DNA of 63,232 bases, filler included, from Reclinomonas americana ATCC 50394 (Eukaryota): NCBI GenBank assembly GCA_048213135.1. It is 19 parts of 19 records of this genome, joined end to end, with 100 filler letters (N's around TTAATTAATTAA, not from the genome) between each part and the next. Parts side by side here need not be neighbours in the genome. Positions count along the whole stretch, not along the records: positions 59,138 to 63,232 come from AFZH01020175.1; 18 more parts are not named here. One strand, given 5' to 3'. The position numbers and the translations under genes are program-made. Below, piece after piece: positions 47,702 to 63,232 of this stretch; the first letter of the stretch is position 1; every line of letters begins with the position of its first letter. Below the pieces are notes generated by a model. The model saw nothing but the letters and a program-made list of their open reading frames with translations, did no database searches and was not told where the DNA came from.

Positions 47702-50700
47702 ATGGCGTCGTCTGCGGGTGGTGACAGCCGTCGCTCACACGGCGGCACAAGCAGTGGTGGTGGAGGAAGCAGTGCAAGTGGAGGCAGTGGAGTAGGTGGC
47801 GATGAGAGTGGACTGAGTGGCGCTGGCTTGGCGGGTCCGTCGGGAGTCATGGAGGGCTCGTTGTTTGCGAAACTCAAAGGTGGCTCACGCGCATAGCATA
47901 CACGTGTGTGAGAGAGAGTGAACTGATGATGATGGTGTTGTGTGTGTGTGCAGCGAGTCTGCTGCAGATGCTCAACTTGAATCGCCCTGTGCCTGTGGAT
48001 CCTGCCGCGCCCATCTTCCAGCCGGGTGTCAACGGTTTGAGTTGTCTCTCTCTCACTCACACACACACACACACTTGTCTCACACTTGTCTCTCTCTCAG
48101 AGGAGGTATGGAAGGTGCTGGTGATGGATCAGTTCTGCGTGGACGTGGTGGGTCCTGTGCTTCGAGTGGGAGATCTACGCAAGCTCGGCGTCACGCTCAA
48201 TCTGTTGCGTGTTGGAGACAACTCACTCCTCTTCTCTCTTGCTGGTTGGTGACACCCTCTGTCTCTGCAGCATGCTGGATCAGCAGCGTGAGGCAGTGTC
48301 GGATGTGCCGGCCTTGTACTTTGTGGAGCCGACACAGGCCAACGTGGACAAGATGATTGCGGTGGGAAGGAGAGAGAGAGAGAGCTTGTCTTGTGCGTTA
48401 GCAGGCAAGTGACTTTTTCGTTTTCCACGACACTAGGACTTCCGACGATCGCTGTACGACTCGTACTTTGTCAACTTTTGTGCGCCGGTGAAGCGGGAAC
48501 AGTTGCAGGCGCTGGCTGCCGGCTCGGTGACCAGTCACTGTGCTGGGCGTGTACAACAGGTACAGAGCACGCAGAGAGGAAAGGGCACATTGCAGCGACG
48601 CATACTGACTGCGTGTGTCTGTGCCTGTGCGATGTGTTGCAGGTGGTGGATCAGTTCCTCGACTTTACGTGCATGGAACCGAATCTGTTCACGCTGTTGC
48701 GACCAAACACGTTCCTCGCCCTCAACGATCCCTCCAAGTCGGAGAGTGCGCTGATGGAGAGAATCAACTCGATTGTGGACGGCATTTTCAGTGTGGTGGT
48801 GACCATGGTGCGTCAGAGGGGGAAAGAAACGGAGAGGCTTCTCCTCGTGCGGTGGTGCATGACTCTTGCGCGGCACAGGAAGTGACGCCGTACATTTGCG
48901 CGATGCGTGGAGAGGCGGCAGAGATGGTGGCCACCAAGTTGGACGAGAAGCTGCGTGCGCACTTGTATGAGCAGGCGCAGGAGTCGGAGGAGTGGCGGTC
49001 CATGTTGAATTCACGACCTGGTGAGTGCAGCCGTCTCAAGGTTCACCTTTGGGGTGCCGCCTCACTACTCGCTCGTGCAGTTTTGTTGATTGTCGACCGG
49101 AGCCTCGATATGGGTGTGTGTTTGCATCATCCGTGGACCTACAAGGCGTTGGTGCACGACGTGCTGGGCATGAATCTGAATCGTGTGACTGTCGAAGTTG
49201 CGCCCGCACATTGTTTCAACTGCGTGCGTGATACTCAATGTGTGGCGGGGGGAGAGCAGCTGGCCACCGAGGGTGACGACGCAGCAGCTGCAGCGGCAGC
49301 AGCGGCGGCTGGTGGAGCTGGCCCATCAGGCGCCCCACCCGCACGTGTGCAAACAAAGAAATACGATCTGAGTCCCGAAGACGATTTCTGGATGAGCCAC
49401 GGTCTCATCACCTTTGAGCGTGTCATGGGTGCGTCTAGTCGAAGCCGTCTTCCCCACATATGCACACACACTGAATGTGCGTGCATGCATGCGCAGAGGA
49501 TGTGGATGTCAAGGTCCGACAGTGCGAGGACGATATCAACACGATTCGTCGCAAGACCGGCATCGATGTGGAGGCCGATCCAACAGGCGGTGGCGGGTGA
49601 GGGTGCCGTGTTGTATATGATGGTCAAACCATTGTCGATTATTGACACGCTGTTGCAGTGGAACATCCATGGAGGAAATGACGTCGGGCATGCGTTCCAT
49701 TCCGGAGCTGCTGGCCAGGAAAAAGTCGCTGGCCATGCACACCAACATTGCCGCCACCCTGCTGCGTGCCATCAAGGCGCGCGACTTGCACAGCATGCAT
49801 CTGCTGGAGCAGAATATTCTGCACTCTCGCTCTGTTGTTGCGTCGTGGTTCCACTGCCACCACACGTGTGTACCTGTCAGAATTCTGATGATTGTTGGGC
49901 GCACAGGATTTCACCGATGTGCAACGCATTTTGGAGCCGACGCATGCGTCGACGGTGGAAGACAAACTGCGCCTGTTCCTGATGTACTACTTGTTGGAGG
50001 ACAACATCTCCCGCGACCGGTTAACGCTGCTGGAGCAAAAGTTGACTGAGCAGCGCGCCGACATGAGTGCCTATGCTTTCCTTCGACAGTTGAGTGCACC
50101 CAACACGTCATAATTGTTGTGATCAGCACTCACCGTCGGGTGGGTGACGCAGATTGAAAACCATGCAAGGCTCACTCAGCACCATGCGTGGTGGCGGTGG
50201 TGGCGGGCGGAATTCTGACATGCTTTCGTCGTTTGCCAACAAGGTAAACACGGGCAGAATTCTTGTCGATTGTTTGTGCCTGTCTCATGTCGTTGCCGGT
50301 GTTTTGTTGCACAGTTCCGCATGCTGGGCGACCACGTCAAGGCGGGACTGGGTATGCATTCGGGCAGTGCCAAGTTGCCGGTCACCAAGACACTGCAGGT
50401 GGTGATGGACGGGCAGCGCGATGCCACCGAGCACGCCAACCTCTTCTTCCTCGATCCCAAGGCCGTGTCGAGCCAGCCGACCAGTGGCGACGGCATGCCA
50501 CGCAACTTCCAAAAAGCGATTGTGCTCACCGTGGGTGGTGGCACCTACGCCGAGTGCCAGAATGTGTTCCAGTATGCTGCCGAGACGGTGAGTCTCCGTG
50601 TGCTGCTCTCGCCCCCTCCATCACGCCTCTTACTCGATGTGCAGGGCAAGTACATCGCGTACGGCTCGACGGACATTGTGACGGGCGGGCAGTTCCTGAG

Positions 50701-56225: not shown

Positions 56226-56525
56226 ATGAGTGGAGCTTGAGGCACGCGACAGCTGTCTCTGCATCTCTCTCCCTCTCTCTCTCTCACACGTACACGTACA
56301 CACTTCTTTCTTTCTTTCGTTCTTCTTTCTTTCATTGTTTTCTTCAATTCTTTCTTTCTCTCTCTNNNNNNNNNNNNNNNNNNNNNNNNNNNNNNNNNNN
56401 NNNNNNNNNTTAATTAATTAANNNNNNNNNNNNNNNNNNNNNNNNNNNNNNNNNNNNNNNNNNNNTTCGTCATTTACATTGTCACCCTTACACACGCAAA
56501 CACACACACGATCTGCTTGCGAAGA

Positions 56526-58930
56526 ATGAATGTTGCCCGTGTGCAGGCCCTCTTCCAGGAGGCCGTGCTGATGGCCTCCCTGGGCGACATGAGCCTGCTC
56601 GCCGACACACTGCGCGAGGCCTCACGAACACTTGGCGCGGATCATCCACTCACACTCAACGTGGAGTCGGTGCAGGCGCAGCTCCTTGTCTCCCAGGGCG
56701 ACCAAAAGAGAGCAGTGACCTTGTATGAGGGGCTGCTGCCGCGCCTCCGTCGCGTGCTCGGCGGAGAGAACGAAGTCACGCTGCAGGCGTCGTCAATGAT
56801 GGCCGAGGCGCTGCGTCAGCTGGGGCGCTACGATGAGGCCGAGGCGCTGTTGCGCGAGACACTGGAGGTGCTGAAGCGCGTGGTTCCGGAGGACGATTCG
56901 AACTTGCTGGCTGCCATGGGCGGCCTCGGCCTTGTTCTCACGGATCGCAACGACGACGAGGCGCACTTAGCTGAGGCGATTGAGCTGGCGCGCGAGGTGC
57001 TGGCTCGACGCAAGCGCTCGAGTGTCAAGAACCCCGAGGGAACCGTGACCAGCGCGTTCAACTTGGCCGTGTATCTCGCCAGTGTGGGCACTGTGGAGGC
57101 GATGAAGGAGAGCGTGGAGCTTTTTCAAGAGACGTACGTGCTCTCGCGGGATGTGCTGGGCGCGCAGCATCCGCGCACGCGTGAGATCGATCATCGAGCC
57201 GAGTGCGGTGCCAGGGTGCTGAAGGAGATGATGCGGGAGCAGGCACGGCAGCCAGCACCGAGGCCGGCAGCAACTGCTGCGGCGCCAGCGGCAGGGCATC
57301 GAGCGCCGGGCCAGCCCTCTGCTTCGGAGAAGCCCAAGAAGCGCAACAGGCGTAGAAATAGGAAGAATAAGAAAGCGACAGCTGCAGCTGCAGGTACTTG
57401 TTACAGCTCTCTCTCTCTCTTTCCTGTGTGTTCTGCCGACGCTCACCTTCACGGCCCGTGCAGCTGCAGAGGAGGACAGTTCAGACGAAGATGACGGCCC
57501 TTCTGCATCTGCTTCTGGATCTGGACCAGCAGTTTCGTGCCTGCTACGAGCGATTCGCCCGGCTCATACCATTTCTGTAACGTCGATAATTGGCAGGGAT
57601 CCTCGTCTGCTGCCGATGCGAAGGCGGATAGGCTTGCTGATGTAAACCGCCGCATAGCAGAGATGACGAATCAGAAGATCTTGGCCAACTATGGTGTCGC
57701 CGCGGCCATTGGCCGCGAGCTCGTGCGCGACATGACGGAGCTCCTCGGAGCCGACAACGAGCACACCCTCGCGGTAGCCTTCCAGCTGTGCGGAGTCTAC
57801 GTCGGCCTCAGTGACCACCAAAGCGCTCTCCCGCTATTCCAAGACACGTTCGATCGCAGGCGTCGTCTGCTTGGAGCAGACCACCGCGATACGTTAATGA
57901 CGGCTTCAAACCTCGGCCTATCGCTTATTCAACTGGGCCGTTGCGATGAGGCACTTGCGCTGCTGCTTGACACGCTGGAGCGGCAGCAGCGAGTGCTGGC
58001 AGCGGATGACGAAACCCTGTGCGTCACCATGGATTACCTCACCTACGTCTACCAAGACCTCGGCCGGATGGACGACGCACTGCGTGTCGCTCGTGATTTG
58101 GGGCCTCGATGGCGACGATGTGTTCTTGCCGGCAGATTCAATCCCATGTGTTGGGTCCACTCGCGTGACGCTGCCATCCTGCTCATGCGGGGTGGCGGTG
58201 TGGAGAACTTGGAGGAGGCGGTTGCTCTTCTCCGCGACACGCACAGGATGCAGACGCAGGTTTTCGGAGGAAACCACGACAATACGCGCGACACCAAGAT
58301 GCTGCTCGATCGAGCTTCCTCGCTGCTGGCGACCGCGCGTCGCGAACAGAAGGCGAAGCAGACGACGACGAAGGGTGCGCCACCGCGCGCGCAGCCAGCG
58401 GGGAGCCAGGGTGAGTCACTGCCAGTGTCCCACAGCTTCGGTGCAGAACCTTTCTCATCATGTCTTTCTGCGCGCAGGGGGGCCCTCCACTGTGAAAGTT
58501 TCGTCCCGGCCTGTTGTTGCACGCGAACGCAGTCAACTCATCGTTGTCCGCAGTCAACTGCTCCGGCGGCCGCGTCTGTGGCGGCATCCACTGCTGGAGA
58601 TCCAACGCGAGTAGCGGCTGAACGACAACGCACCGACGAGTGGCAGGCGCGAGCGCAGCAGCAAGAGGTCGCAGCCGGGCTTGCTCGACAGCGACTGGAG
58701 CGGGCACAGCGCGAGCTGGAAGAGGCTCGCCGCCTGAGGAATGAATTGCAGCGAGACGCAGAGGCAGCGTCAGTAGCAGCGGCTGCCGAAGCACAGCGCT
58801 CCGAGGATGCATGCGCTGCGATGCGGGAGGCGTTGGATCGCGTGAACGAGCTGCGACGTCGCGATCAAGAGCGAACGGAGCAGCTGGAGGCCGATCTTGC
58901 TGCGGTGCAGCGCGATGTCAGCCAGTTCGG
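56526..58930 (+). CDS. TPR-repeat (kinesin-light-chain-like TPR_10/12) protein with C-terminal coiled coil; likely continues into the downstream pseudokinase-RING
   Basis: ~42-aa repeats LGADHPLTL / RRRLLGADHRDTLMTASNLG in two TPR blocks, then a long heptad-rich region ending at a GTTTGT donor before the 59038 spacer. Confidence 0.85.
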
Positions 58931-58944
58931 TTTGTTGGAGATTT

Positions 58945-58997
<53 letters not shown>

Positions 58998-59137
58998 GAC
59001 GACGACGTACGTTACGTACCGTACCGTACCGGTACCGNNNNNNNNNNNNNNNNNNNNNNNNNNNNNNNNNNNNNNNNNNNNTTAATTAATTAANNNNNNN
59101 NNNNNNNNNNNNNNNNNNNNNNNNNNNNNNNNNNNNN

Positions 59138-60623
59138 GCTGGCCGGGTGCGCATGTTCCGAGGAAGCTGGGCGGGCGAGAGTGTGGCAATTCAAGTCTTT
59201 GACAGTGCGCTGCCGTGGTGCATTGAGTCGTTCGCCAGTGAGGTTTGTTTTTGCCAAAGAGAGAGAGAGAGACAGGAAGAAGCAGTGTCCCTCATTTCGC
59301 ACATATCGCAGGTGGCGAAGTTGAAGGCCTTGAGCGTCACTGGTGTTGTTCCTGTTGTCGGCTTTTCCGAATCGGCCGACGGCAAGCGTTGTGTGGTGGT
59401 GGAGGCGATGAGGTGAGGCTGAACGGGCTCGAGTACTTAAGTTGACCATTCTGAAATGATTAATTGCCCGCTGCTGTGTACAGTGAACACAACCTCGAAC
59501 ACCAACTGCTGCAGTGGGAGCAGCATGGACTGCCGGTAATGTCCGTGGAAGCTCGCATCATGTGCTTGCTACGGTGTGCCGAGGCCGTGGCTGCGCTGCA
59601 CAAGTTGCGTGTCGTGAATCCAGTTCGATTCCTGTTCAACAATGTGACTGACTCTCCCCACCTTGCAGGAACGTGAGTCCTTTTGTGTCTTTGATCTTCT
59701 CACAGTCGATTCACTCATTCGTTGCTGACGTGCATGGTGTTGCGTGCAGAATGGTGCGATGCGGTACTTCGTTTTGTTTTTGGCATACCACGAAGTGCTA
59801 TTCTCATGATTTCTCCTCGCAGTGATCCACGGCAATCTGCGGCCACAGAACATTCTGTTCGATCAGAGCGGGTCTGCACACATCTCGGATCTGGGAGTGG
59901 CGCATTGGTTCCGCGTTGACGAGGTGTGTGTGCGCCATGTTTTGTGTTGGCGTGTTGTGTTGCTGTGGCCACTCAATTACAGTCGTCTCGGACAAGGCGG
60001 CGTCTTCTCCCACCGTTGCCGGTGATCTGCAGTATGCAGACACTGCGGTCAAGCGCAACCAGCTGCAAACGAGTGCGGACATTTTCTCTCTCGGCCTTGT
60101 CATCTTCCAAGTGTTCAGTGGCCTGCCGATTGATGAGGTGCATCGGCGAGTGGAGGCACTCAAGGAACTGGAAGAGAGTGCAGGCGACGGCGACGGTGCA
60201 CTACTGGCTGCCGCTGTGGCGCTGGCTGATGAGCGAGTCGGTCGTCGCTGGCCCGCTGCTGCGTGTGAGCGCATTGTGCGACTCGCGCTGCGGTGCGTTG
60301 GGGCGAGTTCGGGAAAGCAGAGAGACTGGGTGATTCACTATTTCTGCAGATGTGTGGACGGCCGTGTTGCGCAACGACCGACCGCGCAGCAGCTCGTGGA
60401 GGAGCTGAGCGATCTCAGCGTGCTGTGTTGCCGCCGGACGTGCATCATGTGCGACAGACTGCGCGACACTCGGCTTCGTCCGTGCACGCACCAGGTGCTC
60501 TGCAAGCAGTGCGCGGAACACATGGTGGCCAAGAGGAGCGAGTGCCCCGTGTGTCGAGTGCCAGTGGAAGGCCTGGATACTGGTGACAACTACGGGCTCC
60601 GCACCTTTGCGGCATCGCAGTGA
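59138..60623 (+). CDS. Pelle/RLK-like pseudokinase plus C-terminal C3HC4 RING finger
   Basis: VAIQ, LH-KNN-VIHGNLRPQNILFD, ISDLG, SADIFSLGLVI, RWPAAACERIVRLALR|CV..RPT; RING CIMC...PCTHQVLCKQC...CPVCR. Confidence 0.85.
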
Positions 60624-60969
60624 CGAATCGCACAGAGGCCACCACTTGTCACTGATAGACCATGGCTTCAGCATGCAGTTGATTCTCAGCGTACTACCCA
60701 ACAGACTCCTCTCGTTTCACCCCTTTGCATGTATTCCTTCAAGTGGCGCCGGCTTGTTGACGCAATGAAGAAAGCAACAAACGTCGCTTCGAATCCCTTC
60801 TTTTCGCATGCCTCGTTTCGTGGTCTTCTATCAGGGTACGTTGGTACAGCAGTCGTGCTGCTGGCTTGCGCTGTGGACCATCAACTTCAAGTCTCTCACC
60901 TGTGGATGACGTAAAGAGGACATCAACCTCGCACCAATCACACGCGCGCGCGGACATACCTCCCCAAGT

Positions 60970-63232
60970 ATGTTCACGAACTGGCACAACCAACACCACG
61001 GGAATCGAGGCCGAGGCCGAGGTCGAGGGCGAGGGCGAGGGCGCGGCCGTGGGCGTGGCGGCTTCGGCGGCGGCGGCGGCGGTATGCAGTTCATTATGAA
61101 TTTTGCCGCGTGCACCGAGAGCTTCCAGGCCGCCGTCAGGGTGTTCAACAGCGGCGACTTTGCGCGAGCGACGACCATGTTTGCCGCGTGTGCGGAGGAA
61201 TGCGAGGAACTGCTCGGCAGTGACCACGGATTGACGATCAGCAGCCTCATGTGGCACGCAGAGTCTCTCCTGGAGAACGATCGCGACGCCAACCGGCACC
61301 GGCGGGCGCTGGCAGCGTTCGAGAATGTGTATCCGCGCTGTGTGCAACAGAACGGCCGCGATTCCCTTGGAGTGCTGACTATGGCGATCAAGATGGGTCT
61401 CTGTAAGCGCGTGCTGGGGCGCGGCGAGGAGGCCATCGTGATTCTGCGAGACACGTGGCAGCGAGTGCAGCGACTGCGGCCGCCTGCGCCTGACGAGCTG
61501 ATGCTTCATTTGCTGGGGGGGTTGAGCAACACACTCGACGAGGAGCAACACTTGGCGGAGGCCGCGACTGTTGCGCGCGACCTCATGCAACTTCAGAAGC
61601 GAGTGTTTGGCGAAGGCGATAAGCGCACGCGCGCTACCACACACATGGTTGCCACCTGCCTCGTCGAGACTGGAGATGAAGCCAAAATAGAAGAGGCTCT
61701 CCCGCTCCTGCGCGACCTGCTGGCGGTCGAGACGCGACTGCTGGGTGCCAACCACGAGGATACGAAGGCAACTGCCGAAGCGTTCCGCGTCGTCTCGCAT
61801 CTTGTCGCCGCCGGTGCCAAACTCGCGGAGGCCATGGCAATCATCGACGGCGACGATATCGACTCCGCCACTTTCGCCGCCGCCGCTGCAGCACATCTCG
61901 ACTGCGCGCACGAGTTCAAGGAAGCCGCCGGCGGTGCCTACAGCAGGCCGGCGTTAGCCGCGCTGTACTACCACGCATTTTGTCTGTTCCACGCGGAGGA
62001 ATCCGATCTCGAACGTGTCTTGGAAATTGTGGATGATGTGCTCACTCGCCAGCGCCGCTTGCTGGGCGACGATGAACGCGACACCCTCAACACTGCCGCC
62101 CTCAAGGGAGAAGTGCTCTCCAGTCTGCGCCGGTTCGACGATGTGATTCCGCTGCTACGCGACACGTTGGAGCGGATGGAACGCGTGCTTCCGGACACGG
62201 GCAAGTCGCACGCAACGGCAACCCGCCTCTGCGAGGCCCTCAGCTGCAGTGGCGCCCATGACGAGGCCATCGAACTCGGACGGAAGATGGTGGCGTCGAG
62301 TCGTCGAAAGTTTGGCGACGATCACCCAAAATCATTCTCGGCTACCCGTCTTCTCGCCGAGCTTCTCGTTGCGGCTGGCGGAGTGGACAACGTGAAGGAA
62401 GCCGTGGCCCTGTTGGAAGACACATTTCAGCGTCAGAAGCGGGTCTCCGATGTTTCCGACCCATCAGTCATCGAAACGGTGCAGGCGCTCAACACTGCCC
62501 GTCTGGCCATGCACACGGATGCGGAGCTTGAGGACATGGACAAGGCTGGTCACGGTACTGGTCGCCTGGTGCTTTTTGGACAAAGTCGGCGACTACCGCG
62601 GCACCTCGAACAGCAGCAGCAGCCTCAGCGTCCCGAAGGGCAAGCGCAGCAACAGCAACAGCAGCAGCAACCGCCGCCGCAGCGTCCACAAGCGCAGGTG
62701 CAACAACAGCAGCAGCAGCAGCAGGCACAGGGGCAGGCACAGAAGCAGCCTCAGCCACAGCAGCAGCAGAAGCCGCAACCACAGCAACAGACCCGTCCGC
62801 AACAATGGCGAGCGAAGCGGCAGAAACAACAGCCCCCAGGGCAAGCGCAGCAGGACACGAAGGCGTCGGGCTCGGCGACGAAGAAGCATGAGGAGCAGAA
62901 TAAGAGCGCCGGAGGTCTGTAGCTGTGTGTTGTTGCTGGCTGCACTACCTCAATTCCACTGCCCTCTCACCATCATAGTCGTTGCTCAGGTGGCATCTTG
63001 ACGCCGGAAGAGCTGGTTCGTTCACATGCGCTTCGCCAGCAATCTCTGTTCCTCTCTCTCTCTCTCTATGTGTGTGTGTGTGTGTGCCTCGCTCTCACTG
63101 GGTTGTGTTGCACCGACGAACTCCTATCTCATGTGCAGGCCCGTCGAATGACCTTCGAAGACCCTACAGGATTGCTCATTCATCGACCGCGTGTTCCTCA
63201 CTGCACGTGCGGCGGACACCACGATCATGAGC
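60970..63232 (+). CDS. Second TPR_10/12-repeat protein with RG-rich N-terminus and polyQ region (runs to window end)
   Basis: 650-codon first ORF with LLGSDHGLT / LLGANHEDT / FGDDHPKS repeats; further short exons near 62989 and 63139. Confidence 0.85.

Follow-up and report, generated by a model that had tools for sequence, protein, structure and literature searches.

A candidate pair of tandem microexons within the kinase domain of a kinase-like gene of Reclinomonas americana

The stretch of DNA analyzed here, referred to as the window, comprises 63,232 nucleotides (nt), spacers included, of the draft genome of the eukaryote Reclinomonas americana ATCC 50394 (GCA_048213135.1). Its last contig (59138-63232; AFZH01020175.1) carries, on the plus strand, a kinase-like host gene whose start lies beyond the contig edge. 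The earlier exons of this gene, 59138-59242 and 59312-59412, are separated by an intron at 59243-59311 and read VAIQ instead of the VAIK lysine in the coordinate-joined translation. They are followed by a 120-nt exon (59484..59603, plus strand), whose open frame and joints were checked, which encodes the end of kinase helix E (...EHNLEH...RCAEAVAALH-K(AA)) and finishes with ...CTG CAC AA. Farther downstream, the exon at 59823..59927 begins with TG ATC CAC and encodes (V)IHGNLRPQNILFDQSGSAHISDLGVAHWFRVDEV, comprising the catalytic-loop and DFG-like region, while the last two exons, 59983-60292 and 60350-60623, flank an intron at 60293-60349, supply the kinase C-lobe and a C3HC4 RING finger, and close with the stop codon TGA at 60621-60623. 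Joined by coordinates with the disputed stretch included, these exons translate into an open frame of about 339 residues. The dispute concerns the 219 nt between the exons ending in ...LHK and beginning with (V)IHGN, where the arrangement of splice signals makes three introns and two tiny exons likely. Since the frame stays open when the other exons are joined over their four introns, a productive path through this stretch is expected.

The predicted path runs 59604-59668/GAAC/59673-59749/AATG/59754-59822 on the plus strand. Intron 1 (59604-59668, 65 nt) has the donor GTTGCGTG (hexamer GTTGCG), the branch motif ACTGACT at 59647-59653, and the acceptor TTGCAG. It precedes the first putative microexon, GAAC (59669-59672, 4 nt), for which an alternative 3' end at 59684 would give a 16-nt exon. 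Intron 2 (59673-59749, 77 nt) combines the donor GTGAGT with the acceptor GTGCAG and a branch motif at either 59713-59719 (ACTCATT) or 59724-59730 (GCTGACG); the alternative donor GTGTCT at 59685 would shorten it to 65 nt. The second putative microexon, AATG (59750-59753, 4 nt), lies between an acceptor scoring 11.3 and a donor scoring 4.5, the strongest pair of this kind in the window. Intron 3 (59754-59822, 69 nt) opens with the donor GTGCGA and ends in the acceptor TCGCAG, with the branch motif TCTCATG at 59802-59808. All three candidate introns are bounded by canonical GT..AG, and in each of them the proposed acceptor is the first AG past the branch motif.

Splice signals were scored with a Viterbi exon/intron parser trained on the window itself, using codon usage from Pfam-supported open frames and three re-estimation rounds over five gene spans whose strand was fixed by Pfam matches, with positions 59590-59830 left out. 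The 78 filtered training introns have a median length of 66 nt (range 45-113 nt), a donor approximating GTGnGT with G at +5, a branch motif CTSAY located 12-38 nt before the AG, and a GCAG acceptor. The branch-like motifs of the three candidate introns lie 16-32 nt upstream of each AG. Introns 1, 2, and 3 score 9.4, 16.8, and 15.1, which places them at the 15th, 92nd, and 73rd percentiles of the training introns. When hexamer occurrences on sense strands are counted, the donors of the predicted path serve as training donors at 5 of 14 (GTGAGT), 3 of 11 (GTGCGA), and 3 of 26 (GTTGCG) sites, and GTGTCG and GTGTCT at 0 of 17 and 0 of 6, respectively. Long introns exist in this genome but are rare: among 138 predicted introns, 8 measure 104-122 nt and only 2 exceed 122 nt. 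A 207-nt intron in the coatomer beta' gene (31711-31917, minus strand) is fixed by homology, its flanks corresponding to residues 8-32 and 31-214 of relatives.

The tandem pattern is more than chance. Given the number of strong acceptors (score at least 7.5, n = 151) and decent donors (at least 3.4, n = 1,344) in 122,864 nt, both strands included, acceptor-donor pairs within 12 nt are not rare in themselves, and a strong acceptor followed by a decent donor at 1-12 nt was found in 14 cases. A gap of 4 nt occurs in only two of these, both at this locus and 81 nt apart. Every 219-nt segment of both strands (21,848 in total) was then divided, in the best-scoring way, into three introns and two exons of at most 20 nt. 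The score of the path with two 4-nt exons, 33.7, was reached by four segments, all of them at this locus (33.7-34.4). When the inner 181 nt were dinucleotide-shuffled 3,000 times, this value was never attained, the maximum being 30.5, or 27.9 in frame.

Inclusion of both GAAC and AATG gives the in-frame product LH-KNNVI-HGN (ALHKNNVIHGNL). From the donor at 59604, splicing without GAAC produces ALHKM* and splicing without AATG produces ALHKN*; skipping of both shifts the frame toward a stop 35 codons later, and retention of intron 1 leads to a stop 23 extra codons on. Enumeration of paths with up to three introns of at least 40 nt yielded 228 in-frame, stop-free solutions with GT or GC donors and 97 with GT only. 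Inclusion of the microexons would keep the frame, but 97 in-frame paths exist, and the family profile described below does not single out the predicted pair. The sequence-only reading of this locus had already proposed the coordinates, lengths, and letters of the three introns and two microexons, and every one of them was correct when the sequence was reread. Its description of introns of modal size with branch-like motifs fits the observed lengths (65, 77, and 69 nt; median of the training introns, 66 nt) as well as the motifs located here, and its statement that skipping either or both microexons from 59604 causes a frameshift was confirmed by translation, yet 11 in-frame completions follow intron 1. 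It had also raised an on/off splicing switch as a role for the microexons, which is speculation; the only fact bearing on this idea is that a single-exon skip meets TGA at once.

The weakest element of the predicted path is the donor of intron 1. GTTGCG has a matrix score of -0.5, which is low because the hexamer lacks G at +5. The 8-mer GTTGCGTG occurs 17 times in the window compared with 3.70 +/- 1.65 in shuffles (4.6-fold), and 0 of 100 shuffles reach 17. Copies are found, for example, at 30754-30761 on the minus strand and at 42575, 43102, 43906, 44536, 45038, 45826, 48204, 59604, and 59739 on the plus strand. In a test independent of the donor, a GT had to be flanked by at least 25 open codons on each side and to have an acceptor-plus-branch score of at least 5 located 55-85 nt downstream. 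This test was passed by 10 of the 17 copies, against 905 of 7,607 (11.9%) of all GT dinucleotides (P 5e-6). By hexamer, the passes were 25/79 for GTTGCG, 14/73 for GTGAGT, 21/100 for GTGCGT, 8/65 for GTGTCG, and 3/48 for GTGTCT. For these donors, good acceptor partners are located at distances of 59-80 nt, and for the copy at 59604 the acceptor at 59668 gives an intron of 65 nt.

Homology supports the same donor class in two other genes. In COPB2, which encodes coatomer beta', a 65-nt intron on the minus strand (30576-30512) falls between ...NLKSAI and EDIVDGEPL according to tblastn with six relatives, and the only GT that joins the flanks in frame is GTTGCGTC at 30576. In the Sec1 gene, a 67-nt intron (48204-48270) has the donor GTTGCGTGT, with 9 of its first 10 letters matching intron 1, and its flanking exons match positions 1-28 and 31-59 of the Pfam Sec1 profile. 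GTTGCG is a real and frequent donor class here. Since GTTGCGTG is enriched, compatible with introns, and backed by homology, the low score of intron 1 represents a flaw of the model. Standard position-weight models score such donors badly, and gene finders may consequently shift nearby donors by 9-21 nt in frame; possible sites of such shifts, with in-frame steps, are 42554/42575 and 45038/45047. A second copy of GTTGCGTG at this locus, 59739-59746, stands just before the acceptor of intron 2 and, as a donor to 59822, would define an intron of 84 nt.

The 97 GT-only paths were scored on splice signals, intron length, codon usage, and a kinase profile built from 31 relatives, with a penalty for each exon shorter than 30 nt (25 nt in one run) that stands for the rarity of microexons. 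At penalties of 5-9 nats, three-intron paths hold a posterior of 0.53-1.00. The AATG exon, common to nearly all good paths, retains at least 0.70 at penalties up to 9 nats. Given intron 1, 11 completions are available, and two of them, the path with two 4-nt exons and the variant with a 16-nt exon followed by AATG, are ahead by at least 5 nats. The same two lead the completions without any exon below 30 nt (those with exons of 68, 95, and 107 nt) by about 24 nats before the penalty is applied. The exact path 59604-59668/GAAC/59673-59749/AATG/59754-59822 has close to an even chance of being the one used. The 16-nt variant, which would use the donor at 59685 and yield LH-KNVSPFNVI-HGN (LHKNVSPFNVIHGN), is unlikely by comparison, though still the foremost alternative, and pairs of tiny exons of other sizes account for a few per cent. 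Both leading forms may also coexist as in-frame isoforms.

The spacing of the product was compared with that of the 31 relatives, in which LH and H-x-D are separated by 5 residues in seven proteins, 7 in four, 8 in one, 9 in six, 10 in eight, 11 in three, and 12 and 14 in one each, and by 4 in none. This distribution speaks against a spacing of 4, whereas 5 is compatible with it, as are 9 and 10. The five residues given by the path with two 4-nt exons consist of three polar and two hydrophobic positions, as in ALHSRGFIH, ALHDRGVVH, and ALHRHGLIH. Because the family itself spans 5-14 residues at this spot, the family profile cannot separate the paths.

Several results weigh against the path with two 4-nt exons. 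The splice model is self-trained, with introns predicted within a single 63-kb window as its source; the donor matrix is weak; and the unconstrained parser over-splits known coding sequence, for example by cutting out the DLG of this very gene. Use of the parser as arbiter was rejected, as without an exon-length prior it gives exons of 0-2 nt and removes the DLG motif, and the model was therefore used for scores and controls only, not as a judge. The choice between a 4-nt and a 16-nt first exon flips with the donor model: a plain position-weight matrix assigns 0.63-0.70 to the 16-nt variant and 0.22-0.25 to the two 4-nt exons, whereas a hexamer-blended model assigns 0.59-0.84 to the latter and 0.10-0.15 to the former. 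Avoidance of GTGAGT in exons, considered as an argument against the 16-nt exon, was looked for and not seen (at most 4 in first-pass exons versus about 4 expected from a composition estimate), and the argument was dropped. In the scan of 219-nt segments, the next locus scores 32.5 and is antisense to coatomer, hence certainly false, and the margin over the background of real sequence is modest. In most of the nearest relatives, whichever half of the domain is used for the comparison, LH is separated from H-x-D by 8-11 residues rather than 5. Family profile scores are 216.0 bits for the two 4-nt exons, 216.9 for the 16-nt variant, 217.8 for a path from 59623, and 211.1 for a single intron. With the plain matrix and penalties of 9-11 nats, that path from 59623, in which the intron 59623-59749 is followed by AATG as the sole microexon (LHKLRVVNPNVIHGN), comes out on top (0.43-0.74). 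Finally, COPB2, the single gene mapped through homology, is accounted for over residues 8-765 without a tiny exon; nothing in the window therefore raises the prior for microexons in this genome, on which the odds lean. Two claims of the sequence-only reading thus stand in part. That two 4-nt microexons are needed holds for the three short introns and for AATG, shared by nearly all well-scoring paths, but the first exon is ambiguous between 4 and 16 nt. That they give exactly the spacing of kinases holds insofar as 5 residues are found in 7 of 31 relatives, but most of the nearest ones differ and the profile is not decisive.

An improbable, though not negligible, explanation is that only one tiny exon, AATG, exists, preceded by a long intron from 59623, 59614, 59611, or 59644 to 59749 and followed by intron 3, with products LHKLRVVNPNVIHGN, LHKLRVNVIHGN, LHKLRNVIHGN, or LHKLRVVNPVRFLFNNNVIHGN. 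Such paths require one microexon instead of two. The product of the 59623 path (KLRVVNPNVI) has the top profile score and carries a proline 4 residues before H, as do six of the eight ten-residue relatives, a further point against the path with two 4-nt exons. The closest relative in the catalytic loop, P0116 (HGDLKPANILFDEDG), has 7 residues at this spot, like the 59614 path. Against this, the introns would measure 106-139 nt (127 nt from 59623), a length shared by few predicted introns. Their donors are absent from the training set (GTTCGA of 59623, 0/7; GTGAAT, 0/1; GTCGTG, 0/10) and do no better than the 11.9% baseline when tested independently of the donor letters (2/29 for GTTCGA, 3/25, and 6/50). 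In these paths, the GTTGCGTG donor would moreover go unused, and the strong acceptor at 59668, with GTGAGT 4 nt farther on, would be a coincidence. With hexamer-aware donors their posterior falls below 0.01.

Slightly less probable again is that no productive splicing takes place, the gene being freshly dead here or the draft assembly containing an indel. An example of an unproductive path combines intron 1, a 70-nt exon (59669-59738), and an 84-nt intron (59739-59822) and meets TGA immediately. It has the appeal of two GTTGCGTG-class donors, two introns of modal size, and no microexon; the assembly is very fragmented, with 19 contigs in 63 kb, and both catalytic residues of the kinase domain, Lys and Asp, are already lost. 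Outside the disputed stretch, the gene is nevertheless open and correctly spliced through the RING finger for about 230 further codons. A repaired version with the 70-nt exon would insert about 23 residues where relatives have at most 14, and comparable paths with long inserts cost about 15 bits. The 70-nt stretch itself is without coding signal (+0.4 nats against about +2.4 expected), and the GTTGCGTG copy at 59739 fails the intron-compatibility test. The path may instead represent an unproductive side product or isoform.

A single 214-nt intron (59609-59822) giving LHKLLIHGN, with the internal splice-like sites arising by chance, is very improbable: although it is the sole single-intron path in frame among the 97, needs no microexon, and has a precedent for length in the 207-nt COPB2 intron, its score of 5.1 is lower than that of any of the 78 training introns, the donor it uses, GTGTCG, is found at no sense-strand training donor (0/17) and passes the donor-independent test only at baseline (8/65), its product leaves 4 residues between LH and H, as in 0 of 31 relatives, with a profile score 5 bits lower, comparably strong internal signals appear in 0 of 3,000 shuffles, and its posterior is below 1e-4 in all settings.

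The encoded protein appears kinase-like in fold, and it was compared with kinase domains of the TKL (IRAK-Pelle-like) type that carry a C-terminal RING. In kinases, the VAIK lysine and the HRD aspartate are catalytic residues; here VAIQ replaces VAIK and HGN replaces HRD, while the DFG-like DLG is kept. Owing to the loss of the catalytic Lys and Asp, the protein is probably an inactive pseudokinase followed by a RING E3 finger. The RING finger is present by a match to Pfam zf-C3HC4_3 (36 bits, where the cut-off is 27; E value 5.9e-9). Matches to Pfam Pkinase on single exons, with E values of 5e-4 (positions 120-148, downstream exon) and 0.02, are below the curated cut-off, and the upstream exon alone gave no Pfam match, so the spacing is not readable from that profile. 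An exhaustive phmmer search of 1.84 billion representatives returned 248 proteins at E values up to 0.001, with only two at or below 1e-10. The best relatives are proteins that combine a kinase and a RING domain (E value 1.6e-12, 33-35% identity). The relative P0116 retains both residues (VAIK, HGD). Word-indexed protein searches with the C-lobe and RING piece found no match in either length class, no paralogue of the gene is present in the window, and an exact scan of metagenome contigs for 24 nt taken from the downstream exon turned up 0 matches.

A bolder interpretation, with a probability of about 0.4, is that two constitutive back-to-back 4-nt exons build the junction of helix E and the catalytic loop of a kinase-like domain in a short-intron protist, the introns being removed strictly one by one; since any slip would meet TGA at once, the arrangement could act as a splicing-dependent gate on the protein. 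Each intron possesses its own donor, branch motif, and acceptor within 65-77 nt, an arrangement that would fit intron definition, in which recognition takes place across the intron. An exon of 4 nt spans fewer bases than are contacted at a 5' splice site, where U1 pairs with the RNA. Neighboring introns could therefore hardly be engaged together and would have to be removed in succession, so that every step joins a tiny exon to one of normal size. The anatomy, the statistics, and the in-frame product are observed, whereas the use of these sites and the order of intron removal are inferred.

Further searches addressed structure and origin. Against shuffled sequences, the RNA of 59590-59835 shows no excess stability in its predicted fold (z 0.19). 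Comparison of the three introns gave no significant similarity (p 0.14-0.89), so that they are not copies of each other, and no Rfam match occurs in the window. Within intron 1, the 10-mer AACAATGTGA at 59638-59647, in frame with the upstream exon, is identical to the predicted spliced junction over both 4-nt exons. Among 500 shuffles, 2.6% contain a 10-mer match somewhere in the spliced neighborhood of 230 nt, and one exactly on the junction is rarer. This copy is usable by no canonical splice and may be a relic of intron origin or a matter of chance.

The wider window joins 19 contigs of about 1.2-12 kb by spacers of the form N44-TTAATTAATTAA-N44 (for example, 59038-59137), and contigs that are neighbors here need not adjoin in the genome. 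Runs of (GA)n or (GT)n terminate several of the contigs. The other genes of the window encode ordinary eukaryotic housekeeping proteins: coatomer beta', Sec1, NAP, and a TAF1-like protein with a bromodomain. Among the matches listed, identity to the coatomer protein does not exceed about 61% (one partial match reaches 65%), and the searched collections therefore contain no close relative of the organism. Open frames rich in TPR_12/TPR_10 flank the kinase-like gene at 56469-59036 and 60910-62919 (plus strand), and the downstream one ends in a long Gln-rich tract at about 62600-62900. The contig that precedes the kinase-like gene ends in a coiled-coil-like segment, and distant kinase and RING relatives have a coiled coil before the kinase; since these relatives share this feature, the preceding contig may hold the 5' part of the same gene.

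If confirmed by transcripts, the locus would provide an extreme test case of intron definition, with two exons smaller than the splicing footprint in a row within a conserved protein core, in a lineage that lacks close sequenced relatives. It would also be an annotation trap, as gene finders would skip the C-terminal half of the gene or invent LHKLLIHGN. In a narrow open-access full-text search, no report was found of an adjacent exon pair in which both members are this short, the closest being a pair of 5 and 12 nt in plants; if real, the present pair would be the shortest tandem exon pair mentioned in the literature searched. Ultra-short and adjacent microexons have already been documented in plants and animals, and no new question is therefore opened.

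The closest parallels come from plants, for which the available excerpts report 2,398 exons of 1-15 nt across ten species, 1-nt exons included, and a Peptidase M1 gene with two adjacent microexons (5 and 12 nt) that were verified by RNA sequencing and reverse transcription PCR (PMC12409088, PMC8831610, PMC11096116). This verification was made in Zygnema and rice and extends to the 1-nt exons of APC11 and VPS55 (PMC11096116, PMC8831610). In one of these excerpts, plant microexons are argued to be too small for spliceosomes on both flanking introns, so that one waits and the flanking introns tend to be detained (PMC8831610). As far as these excerpts go, the exons predicted in R. americana resemble plant microexons in being coding exons of a few bases, placed back to back between GT-AG introns, keeping the frame, and missed by annotation. 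They differ from the 5- and 12-nt pair in that both would be 4 nt (or 16 and 4 nt), the introns are about 66 nt, the host is not plant-like, and the case is known from sequence alone.

Among animals, C. elegans microexons between introns of about 50-60 nt are reported, in the portion of the study available, to be included by intron definition without PRP-40 (PMC8378409). As described there, they reach up to 27 nt, are mostly alternative and neuronal, and were experimentally tested, whereas the present exons are presumably constitutive and sequence-based. Human RPS24 contains, according to an excerpted report, three consecutive microexons of 3, 18, and 22 bp (PMC12207440), and so resembles this locus in having several microexons in a row in one gene. 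On that account, the RPS24 microexons lie at the 3' end, are alternatively used, have long flanking introns, and do not build the core of a conserved domain, unlike those predicted here. The locus is also similar to recursive splicing and to stwintrons in that a long non-coding stretch would be removed in several steps. A recursive splice site with a zero-length exon was considered and rejected, because AG does not abut GT; in contrast to recursive splicing, four coding bases stand between each AG and the next GT. Unlike stwintrons, the three predicted introns are arranged in tandem and not nested, each with a complete donor, branch motif, and acceptor.

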